Assembly (NCBI GenBank): GCA_029259185.1
Contig: JAPDJF010000047.1
Location: 1-20,267, forward strand
Direction: 5' to 3'
DNA length: 20,267 nucleotides
From: Hadesarchaea archaeon
Lineage (GTDB): Archaea; Hadarchaeota; Hadarchaeia; Hadarchaeales; WYZ-LMO6
Shown one piece after another: positions 7,784 to 8,153 of the stretch. Below the pieces are notes generated by a model. The model made no database searches. It saw only the letters and a program-made list of their open reading frames with translations, and was not told where the DNA came from. Positions within the stretch are counted from its first letter, which is position 1. Each line of letters opens with the position of its first letter. Made by a program: the position numbers and the translations under genes.

Positions 7784-7882
7784 TGGTGGGCCCGGAGGGA
7801 TTCGAACCCTCGATTTTCGCCTCGTGAAGGCGACGTTTGTCAGAGGTCCATTCTCCCCTCATGACCGCTAGACCACGGGCCC
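7784..7882 (-). tRNA. tRNA-Val(CAC) with a 23-nt intron at 23/24 (7837-7859); CCA encoded
   Basis: GGGCCCG acceptor, TCGCC-TTCACGA-GGCGA anticodon arm, GAGGG-TTCGAAT-CCCTC T arm, ACCA end. Removing AGGGGAGAATGGACCTCTGACAA gives a 76-nt cloverleaf. Confidence 0.93.
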
Positions 7883-7917: not shown

Positions 7918-7999
7918 GTCCCACTCTAAATTTTGATACTCAATAGAAAGGAACCCAACATAATATTTGCGGGCCGGTATCATCCGGAGGTTCACGAGG

Positions 8000-8101
8000 T
8001 GGACCTTCCGCGGAGGACCCAAGAGCCCTCCTGGGCGGGATTCGAACCCGCGACCTCCCGCATGCCAAGCGGACGATCATACCAGGCTGATCTACCGGCC
8101 C
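8000..8101 (-). tRNA. tRNA-Ala(GGC) with a 27-nt intron in the acceptor stem at 67/68 (8006-8032)
   Basis: GGGCCGG-TA-GATC D arm, TCCGC-TTGGCAT-GCGGG anticodon arm, GCGGG-TTCGAAT-CCCGC T arm, then CC[intron]GGTCC-A-CC. Splicing restores a 7-bp acceptor stem with G3-U70 and A73. Confidence 0.9.
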
Positions 8102-8153
8102 ACCATCATAAATGGGATCCATAGGTTTATTGAATTTATTCTCGAAAGCCAAC

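Follow-up and report, generated by a model that had tools for sequence, protein, structure and literature searches.

Among the closest described parallels to the gene reported here are the split tRNAs of Nanoarchaeum equitans and Caldivirga maquilingensis. In these, according to the accessible parts of the reports, sequence lying outside the mature tRNA pairs the exon pieces beside a relaxed BHB motif and is then removed by the splicing endonuclease (PMC4090602, PMC4033280). The tRNA-Ala(GGC) gene of a Hadesarchaea archaeon resembles them in that sequence outside the mature tRNA is predicted to pair in a way that joins exon pieces, here in cis. Unlike a split tRNA, it is one gene with one transcript, its exons, intron, and trailer lying contiguously from 8101 to 7971. 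Instead of a second flank, the partners of its trailer are exon nucleotides (nt 1-9 and those of the 5' T-stem strand), and because the endonuclease does not cut this trailer off, it must leave by another route.

Three other systems invite comparison. The noncanonical BHB introns of Thermoproteales, Asgard archaea, and others share with this gene a 4-bp central helix, 3-nt bulges, and an intron-side helix, but as described, their motif is built from exon and intron only, unlike that of the gene studied here (10.64898/2026.10.13.758758). The word "trailer" does not occur in the accessible text of that study, which classes insertions in the acceptor stem as "other." In precursors of archaeal rRNA and of permuted tRNAs, the 5' and 3' ends also pair, forming a long helix that presents the BHB (PMC7714728, PMC4090602, in their accessible parts). 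There, the BHB lies inside the leader-trailer helix, whereas the terminal helix predicted here stands far from the motif and uses nucleotides of the mature tRNA. The integration model proposed for Caldiarchaeum subterraneum, as given in the accessible part of the paper (PMC3293823), also involves recent, patchy gain of a tRNA intron along with nearby tRNA-related sequence. That model leaves behind direct repeats of the tRNA terminus and a recombinase gene, whereas the repeat here is inverted, direct-repeat similarity is lacking, and no recombinase is found among 12 ORFs. The BHB tRNA intron is the known part of this locus, and a proposed split-tRNA-like helper acting in cis is the new one. We found no description of a trailer that pairs with an exon to build or hold the splicing substrate in the literature searched, which took in few subscription journals and no supplements and was in part accessible only as partial text.

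The window, by which we mean the whole stretch of DNA analyzed, comprises 20,267 nt of contig JAPDJF010000047.1 (GCA_029259185.1; positions 1-20,267, forward strand). Rfam finds two tRNA genes in it, both on the minus strand, while ARAGORN calls no tRNA in the window and misses both tRNA-Ala and tRNA-Val. Read directly from the strand, tRNA-Ala(GGC) occupies 8101-8000 with its intron included. Its Rfam match is confined to 8033-8096 (41.3 bits), covers model positions 6-65 only, and leaves the acceptor stem unaligned: the sequence is that of a normal tRNA as far as the T loop and the 3' T-stem strand, after which it diverges. The anticodon loop is TTGGCAT, and among the 40 Rfam tRNA matches of the 1.27-Mb genome, this is the sole GGC isoacceptor. 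The features of the gene and its flanks are collected in Table 1.

Table 1. Features of the tRNA-Ala(GGC) gene and its flanks (window positions)
Feature	Position	Strand	Remarks
A+T-rich TATA-like stretch, 25-39 nt upstream of nt 1	8126..8140	-	putative promoter element
5' exon of tRNA-Ala(GGC), linear nt 1-69 (Sprinzl 1-67)	8033..8101	-	Rfam; body identical or near-identical to orthologues
BHB central helix, 5' strand CCGC (= 3' T-stem strand)	8035..8038	-	pairs with 8011-8008
Bulge CCA after the 5' central-helix strand	8034-8032	-	
Intron, 27 nt, between Sprinzl 67 and 68, with 7-bp inner hairpin	8006..8032	-	absent from 21 orthologues
BHB central helix, 3' strand GCGG (intron end)	8008..8011	-	
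Bulge AAG after the 3' central-helix strand	8007-8005	-	
3' exon GGTCCA, 6 nt (Sprinzl 68-73)	8000..8005	-	same as the 3' end of all listed orthologues
Trailer segment 1 (anti-T-stem), CTCGTGAACCTCC	7986..7998	-	pairs with linear nt 44-55
Linker GGATGA, 6 nt	7980..7985	-	opposite the D and anticodon arms
Trailer segment 2 (anti-acceptor), TACCGGCCC	7971..7979	-	perfect complement of nt 1-9
First T-rich stretch past the gene, TTCCTTTCTATT	7942..7953	-	possible transcription stop

The splice motif is a perfect 3-4-3 BHB, in which C64-C67 pair with G91-G94 between the bulges CCA and AAG. The four central-helix pairs (CG, CG, GC, CG) are invariant in the three intron-bearing genes described below. 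The intron-side helix (h', the 7-bp inner helix), by comparison, is changed on both sides in six of its seven pairs among those genes. The cut sites fall after the second nucleotide of each 3-nt bulge, with the borders fixed by 21 orthologues. Joining of the exons gives a 3' end that reads ...CCCGCCCGGTCCA, as in all listed orthologues without an intron at 67/68 (40 relatives), and within the window this end is obtained only by removal of the 27 nt from 8032 to 8006. It is the 6-nt 3' exon that provides U70 for the G3-U70 pair and A73, which we take to be the alanine identity elements. We also considered a reading with a longer intron, in which CCGGCCC plus a G in the trailer would be the true acceptor strand. 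This was rejected, as the preceding GATA cannot pair with CCGC, and the tRNA would carry G3-C70 and G73, unlike the 3' end common to the 21 orthologues. One candidate for the splicing endonuclease is encoded in the same genome (a single PF01974 match of 123.8 bits in a 197-aa frame, G000:C15:35579-35836).

The central helix occupies the 3' T-stem strand but for one of its five nucleotides, and the BHB can therefore form only if the T stem is opened, as a reading made from the sequence only had claimed. [quoted passage not shown] As the accessible part of the published classification has it, class HBh' is a BHB without the exon-side helix, as opposed to hBHBh' (10.64898/2026.10.13.758758). Because only one exon-side pair can form, the motif belongs to class HBh' and not to hBHBh'. 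In the folding model, exon-side closure would come from acceptor pairs 1-5 or from the trailer.

Two segments of the trailer are antisense to the tRNA. The partner of segment 1 is GGAGGTCGCGGG (linear 44-55, Sprinzl 42-53), which spans the variable region and the 5' T-stem strand, and the pairing amounts to 12 bp with two G-U pairs and a bulged A at 7992. Segment 2 forms nine Watson-Crick pairs with nt 1-9, and the two helices are nested. The linker between them is partly paired with D-arm nucleotides in the minimum-energy fold at 70°C. Both segments had been noted in the sequence-only reading, and on re-reading their coordinates and pairings proved exact (12 bp for 7998-7986 and 9 bp for 7979-7971). 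The same reading took the two G-U pairs as a sign of selection at the RNA level; the pairs are there, but as an argument they are weak, because C-to-T transitions are the commonest change.

How far could such pairing arise by chance? The trailers of 36 of the 40 Rfam tRNA matches in the genome were compared, the four with undefined 5' ends being left out. A perfect complement of nt 1-12 reaches a length of 9 in this trailer, and none of the other 35 exceeds 6. TACCGGCCC was also considered as a member of a repeat family and dismissed, since it has 8 copies on both strands of the 1.27-Mb genome, versus 9.7 expected. A search of the genome for paralogues of the intron or trailer gave short chance matches only, the best being 19 nt with one mismatch. 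Among contigs of four sequencing runs, X4 and X5 are identical over the trailer; outside it, they show a single difference, an A-to-G change at 7958. Against dinucleotide shuffles of the whole trailer (n = 150), the real trailer adds -21.0 kcal/mol at 37°C, compared with -11.6 ± 2.6 for the shuffles (0 of 150 as good, z = -3.7). At 70°C, 1 of 150 is as good (z = -4.05). For segment 1, with segment 2 held fixed, 16 to 40 of 100 to 150 shuffles are equally stabilizing (z = -0.5 to -0.9). It stands out at 70°C only, and only by central-helix probability (0.79 versus a mean of 0.37 to 0.38, with 5/150 and 2/100 shuffles reaching 0.79). Chance is therefore excluded for the 9-mer of segment 2, whereas segment 1 alone in the window gene is within the chance range and statistically weak.

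Of 12 window ORFs compared with Pfam, 10 match housekeeping families, two match none, and no integrase is among them. Between 3722 and 11433, the matches are to acetyl-CoA synthetase, D-aminoacyl-tRNA deacylase, FtsZ, an LSm protein, a PUA-domain protein, SepF, and the termination factor FttA; the presence of FtsZ and SepF presumably argues against a Cdv-dividing crenarchaeon. The second tRNA gene, tRNA-Val(CAC) (7787-7882, minus strand), follows tRNA-Ala at a distance of 117 nt, and the Rfam alignment places a 25-nt insertion in its D region. At least 7 relatives keep the Ala and Val genes in synteny, 43 to 237 nt apart. Elsewhere in the genome, tRNA-Asn(GUU) (G000:C12:18629-18790, plus strand) also has a canonical intron and carries its 5' acceptor strand, GCCGGGG, twice, 3 nt apart, before the D arm. 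The duplicated strand may be a 5'-side counterpart of a decoy strand. At G000:C13:15012-15074, G000:C13:15239-15303, and G000:C37:4131-4201, short or low-scoring tRNA matches have their 5' parts upstream behind insertions, and the same genome therefore contains further heavily interrupted tRNA genes.

Orthologues without the intron offer a direct comparison. Loci from 29 relatives yielded 21 recognizable orthologues that lack the 67/68 intron (one of them, L054, partly masked by N); the other 8 failed the 5'-end filter or were incomplete. In the trailers of all 21, the longest complement is at most 6, versus 9 in the window gene, which bears out the expectation that the trailer complement would be lost where the intron is missing. 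In one orthologue without this intron (L036, genome G004), the trailer reads TACCG-CT-GGCCC, 16 nt past A73, which is the complement of nt 1-9 with a 2-nt interruption. This may be a remnant or a precursor of the module within the same family. A contig from the sequencing runs (X7) represents a relative without an insertion at this site and keeps the Ala-Val tRNA pair. Across the 65 genomes of the order, which is the whole class examined, the 67/68 intron module is found in the window genome only. A strict module pattern run over species-representative genomes gave 85 matches, none of them true, and in viral contigs, 0 of 1 and 0 of 24 matches were tRNA-like.

The metagenome scan, with totals that are lower bounds, was more productive. 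Among the 120 loci listed, 118 are unrelated bacterial-type matches and two are true relatives, L131, a tRNA-Ala(GGC), and L176, a tRNA-Ala(CGC), both with the 67/68 intron and the same BHB core. Rfam, applied to these two, gives tRNA matches only, besides a YrlA-like match far below threshold (20.9 bits against a cutoff of 69). The downstream flank of L131 is similar to that of a locus of family f2 (L053; 93.5% over 62 nt). The complement of nt 1-9 is present in all three listed genes with the 67/68 intron (the window gene, L131, and L176), its CCGGCCC core beginning 21 to 24 nt past A73 in each. In segment 2, 26 of 27 letters agree among the three genes, in contrast to a heavily diverged intron hairpin and remaining trailer. 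The one change is A to G in L131, which leaves U8 paired as U-G. With nt 1-9 invariant, the helix shows this single one-sided change only, and it is a case of conservation, not covariation. A trailer segment also sequesters the 5' T-stem strand in all three genes. Its registers differ (linear 44-55 in the window gene, 47-58 in L131, and 49-60 in L176); the target of the pairing is kept, the sequence is not. The sequence-only reading thus holds up in its expectation that complementarity would persist where the intron does.

In none of the three genes is the stretch from A73 to the end of segment 2 interrupted by TTTT, and in L131 and L176, segment 2 gives way at once to a T run. As an argument, this is weak, because 12 of the 21 orthologues without the 67/68 intron likewise have no TTTT in the first 10 nt. 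The module is probably common to the three genes by descent, and hence they do not represent three independent events. Both additional loci have further peculiarities. In L131, some 340 nt (134-480) between the trailer and the conserved promoter of tRNA-Val are unmatched in the relatives or in the window genome, have CCATCGA at both ends, and contain no convincing ORF. In L176, the motif that contains the complement is duplicated ~85 nt downstream (GGTTGCCGGCCCGTAT versus GTGTTACCGGCCCGTCT), the second copy standing after a T run and A+T-rich DNA, and this copy could mark a duplication or insertion.

Predicted folds, from an energy model that ignores tertiary structure and proteins, differ between the three genes in how far they depend on the trailer. 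At 37, 55, and 70°C alike, L131 and L176 have the nested architecture as their minimum-energy fold. A 9-bp helix closes it at the ends, the D and anticodon arms are intact, and trailer and T stem form a 12-bp helix; enclosed by these are the 4-bp central helix, the 3-nt bulge, and the intron hairpin. The central-helix probability at 37°C is 0.87 in L131 and 0.94 in L176 with the trailer and 0.01 without it; shuffling of segment 1 brings the mean down to 0.06 to 0.13, and 0 of 100 shuffles reach the real value.

For the window gene, the nested conformer is dominant at 55 to 85°C, while at 37°C the minimum-energy fold retains the T arm and leaves segment 1 unpaired. The higher temperatures are taken as the relevant ones because the DNA runs that hold the window are labeled hydrothermal vent metagenome, a label that suggests, but only indirectly, a hot habitat. 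The pairing probability of segment 1 is 0.65 at 55°C and 0.84 at 70°C, and that of segment 2 is 0.97 to 1.00 at every temperature tested. Central-helix probabilities with and without the trailer are 0.61 versus 0.58 at 55°C, 0.79 versus 0.63 at 70°C, and 0.42 versus 0.29 at 85°C. The helix that forms without the trailer (0.58 to 0.63 at 55 to 70°C) is closed by acceptor pairs 1-5. In the model, then, the gain from the trailer is modest in the window gene, which is the weakest of the three cases, and the trailer is not required there for the central helix. The nested order proposed from the sequence is accordingly recovered throughout 37 to 70°C in L131 and L176, and in the window gene at 55 to 85°C but not at 37°C. 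The predicted rise upon adding the trailer is large in L131 and L176 and modest in the window gene (0.79 versus 0.63 at 70°C). The term "folding chaperone" suits the window gene less well, since a splice-helix probability of ~0.6 is reached without the trailer at 55 to 70°C, and this gene supports a tether more.

The energetics of the cleaved product point to such a tether. At 70°C, the 6-nt 3' exon alone is predicted to bind the 5' exon with -1.0 kcal/mol in all three genes, which in this model is effectively no binding. The 3' exon together with its trailer is predicted to bind with -10.6 to -12.7 kcal/mol across the three genes. In a swap control, 20 natural trailers of orthologues without the 67/68 intron reach no more than -4.7 to -5.0 kcal/mol of binding at 70°C. 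In each gene, its own trailer surpasses all 20 in added stability and in exon-exon binding, and it also surpasses all 20 in central-helix probability, bar one tie (L176 at 70°C). When the spliced product is modeled, segment 2 stays on nt 1-9 (1.00), and the true acceptor stem has a probability of 0.00.

We therefore favor, at a probability of about 0.55, the reading that the 3' trailer of tRNA-Ala(GGC) acts in cis as a splint and tether for an awkwardly placed intron. What carries this reading is that the complementarity exists, is rare, and occurs together with the intron, along with the folds and energies predicted. An intron at 67/68 would pose two difficulties, in that the BHB must borrow the 3' T-stem strand and that cutting leaves a 3' exon of 6 nt. 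In the primary transcript, presumed to extend through the trailer, segment 2 would hold nt 1-9, and segment 1 would take the 5' T-stem strand and the variable region, so that the 3' T-stem strand would be free for the 4-bp central helix. The trailer would thereby supply the exon-side closure that the cloverleaf cannot. After both endonuclease cuts, it would hold the tiny 3' exon on the 5' exon for ligation at high temperature. If the tether works through the trailer, splicing must precede 3' trimming. The trailer is presumably needed for splicing, and its later removal would be left to some other activity than the splicing endonuclease.

It is possible, although in our view improbable, that the trailer is a passive relic, its complement being left-over or hitchhiking DNA with no role in RNA. 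The patchy distribution (one of 65 genomes of the order) fits this, as do the presence of the module in a contig related to family f2 (L131) and in a different isoacceptor (the CGC gene, L176) and the signs of insertion or duplication, namely, the ~340 unmatched nucleotides with CCATCGA ends in L131 and the second motif copy in L176. There is also, in the accessible part of the paper, a published model for intron gain via an intron-carrying attP site that leaves tRNA fragments behind (PMC3293823). Such integration leaves direct repeats, however, and what we see is an inverted complement. [quoted passage not shown] Pfam gives no integrase or recombinase among the 12 window ORFs scanned, and no viral contig carries the module (tRNA-like matches 0/1 and 0/24). 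Conservation of the 9-mer in 26 of 27 letters, next to a heavily diverged intron hairpin and remaining trailer, also argues against a mere left-over. Origin of the trailer as a transferred cassette and a function in RNA are compatible, and we favor both.

Still less probable, we think, is that the pairing of the trailer with nt 1-9 mainly sets the order of processing and does not serve motif formation, either by hiding the acceptor stem from tRNase Z, RNase P, CCA addition, or charging until splicing has occurred or by protecting the precursor ends. The hold of segment 2 on nt 1-9 (0.97 to 1.00 before splicing and 1.00 after) is consistent with this, as is the central helix that the model forms without the trailer at 55 to 70°C, and the order of archaeal tRNA processing is described as varying between organisms (PMC7714728). 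Such a role leaves unaccounted for the anti-T-stem segment in all three genes and the large rise of the central helix in L131 and L176; it also overlaps with the splint and tether and does not exclude them. Chance complementarity in G+C-rich sequence finds some room in the 12-bp segment 1, which alone is within the shuffle range in the window gene, but it is very improbable as an explanation of the whole. The 9-mer is an outlier against both the 35 other tRNAs of the genome and the 21 orthologues, shuffles of the whole trailer are as good in only 0/150 and 1/150 cases, and the same feature recurs at the same distance in two further genes, L131 and L176.

The splint and tether, if correct, matter in several respects. 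To our knowledge, archaeal tRNA introns persist only at sites where the splice motif can be formed by exon and intron between them. Were a trailer to contribute to the substrate, introns could survive at a wider range of sites, and processing would be given an order, with splicing followed by 3' trimming. It would likewise supply a definite stage between interrupted and split tRNA genes. Such tRNA genes are also under-annotated: ARAGORN misses tRNA-Ala altogether, and Rfam covers model positions 6-65 only.

A bolder and more tentative proposal, which we consider possible but rather doubtful, is that a portable module of intron, 6-nt 3' exon, and splint trailer amounts to a tRNA gene architecture of a new type, namely a split tRNA in cis. 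If this were true, an obligatory trailer would pair with nucleotides of the mature tRNA and would both assemble and hold the splicing substrate, with a 3' piece too short to stay bound alone. The substrate of the archaeal splicing endonuclease would then be definable by sequence outside exon and intron. The gene would then represent an extant intermediate form linking intron-containing and split tRNA genes.
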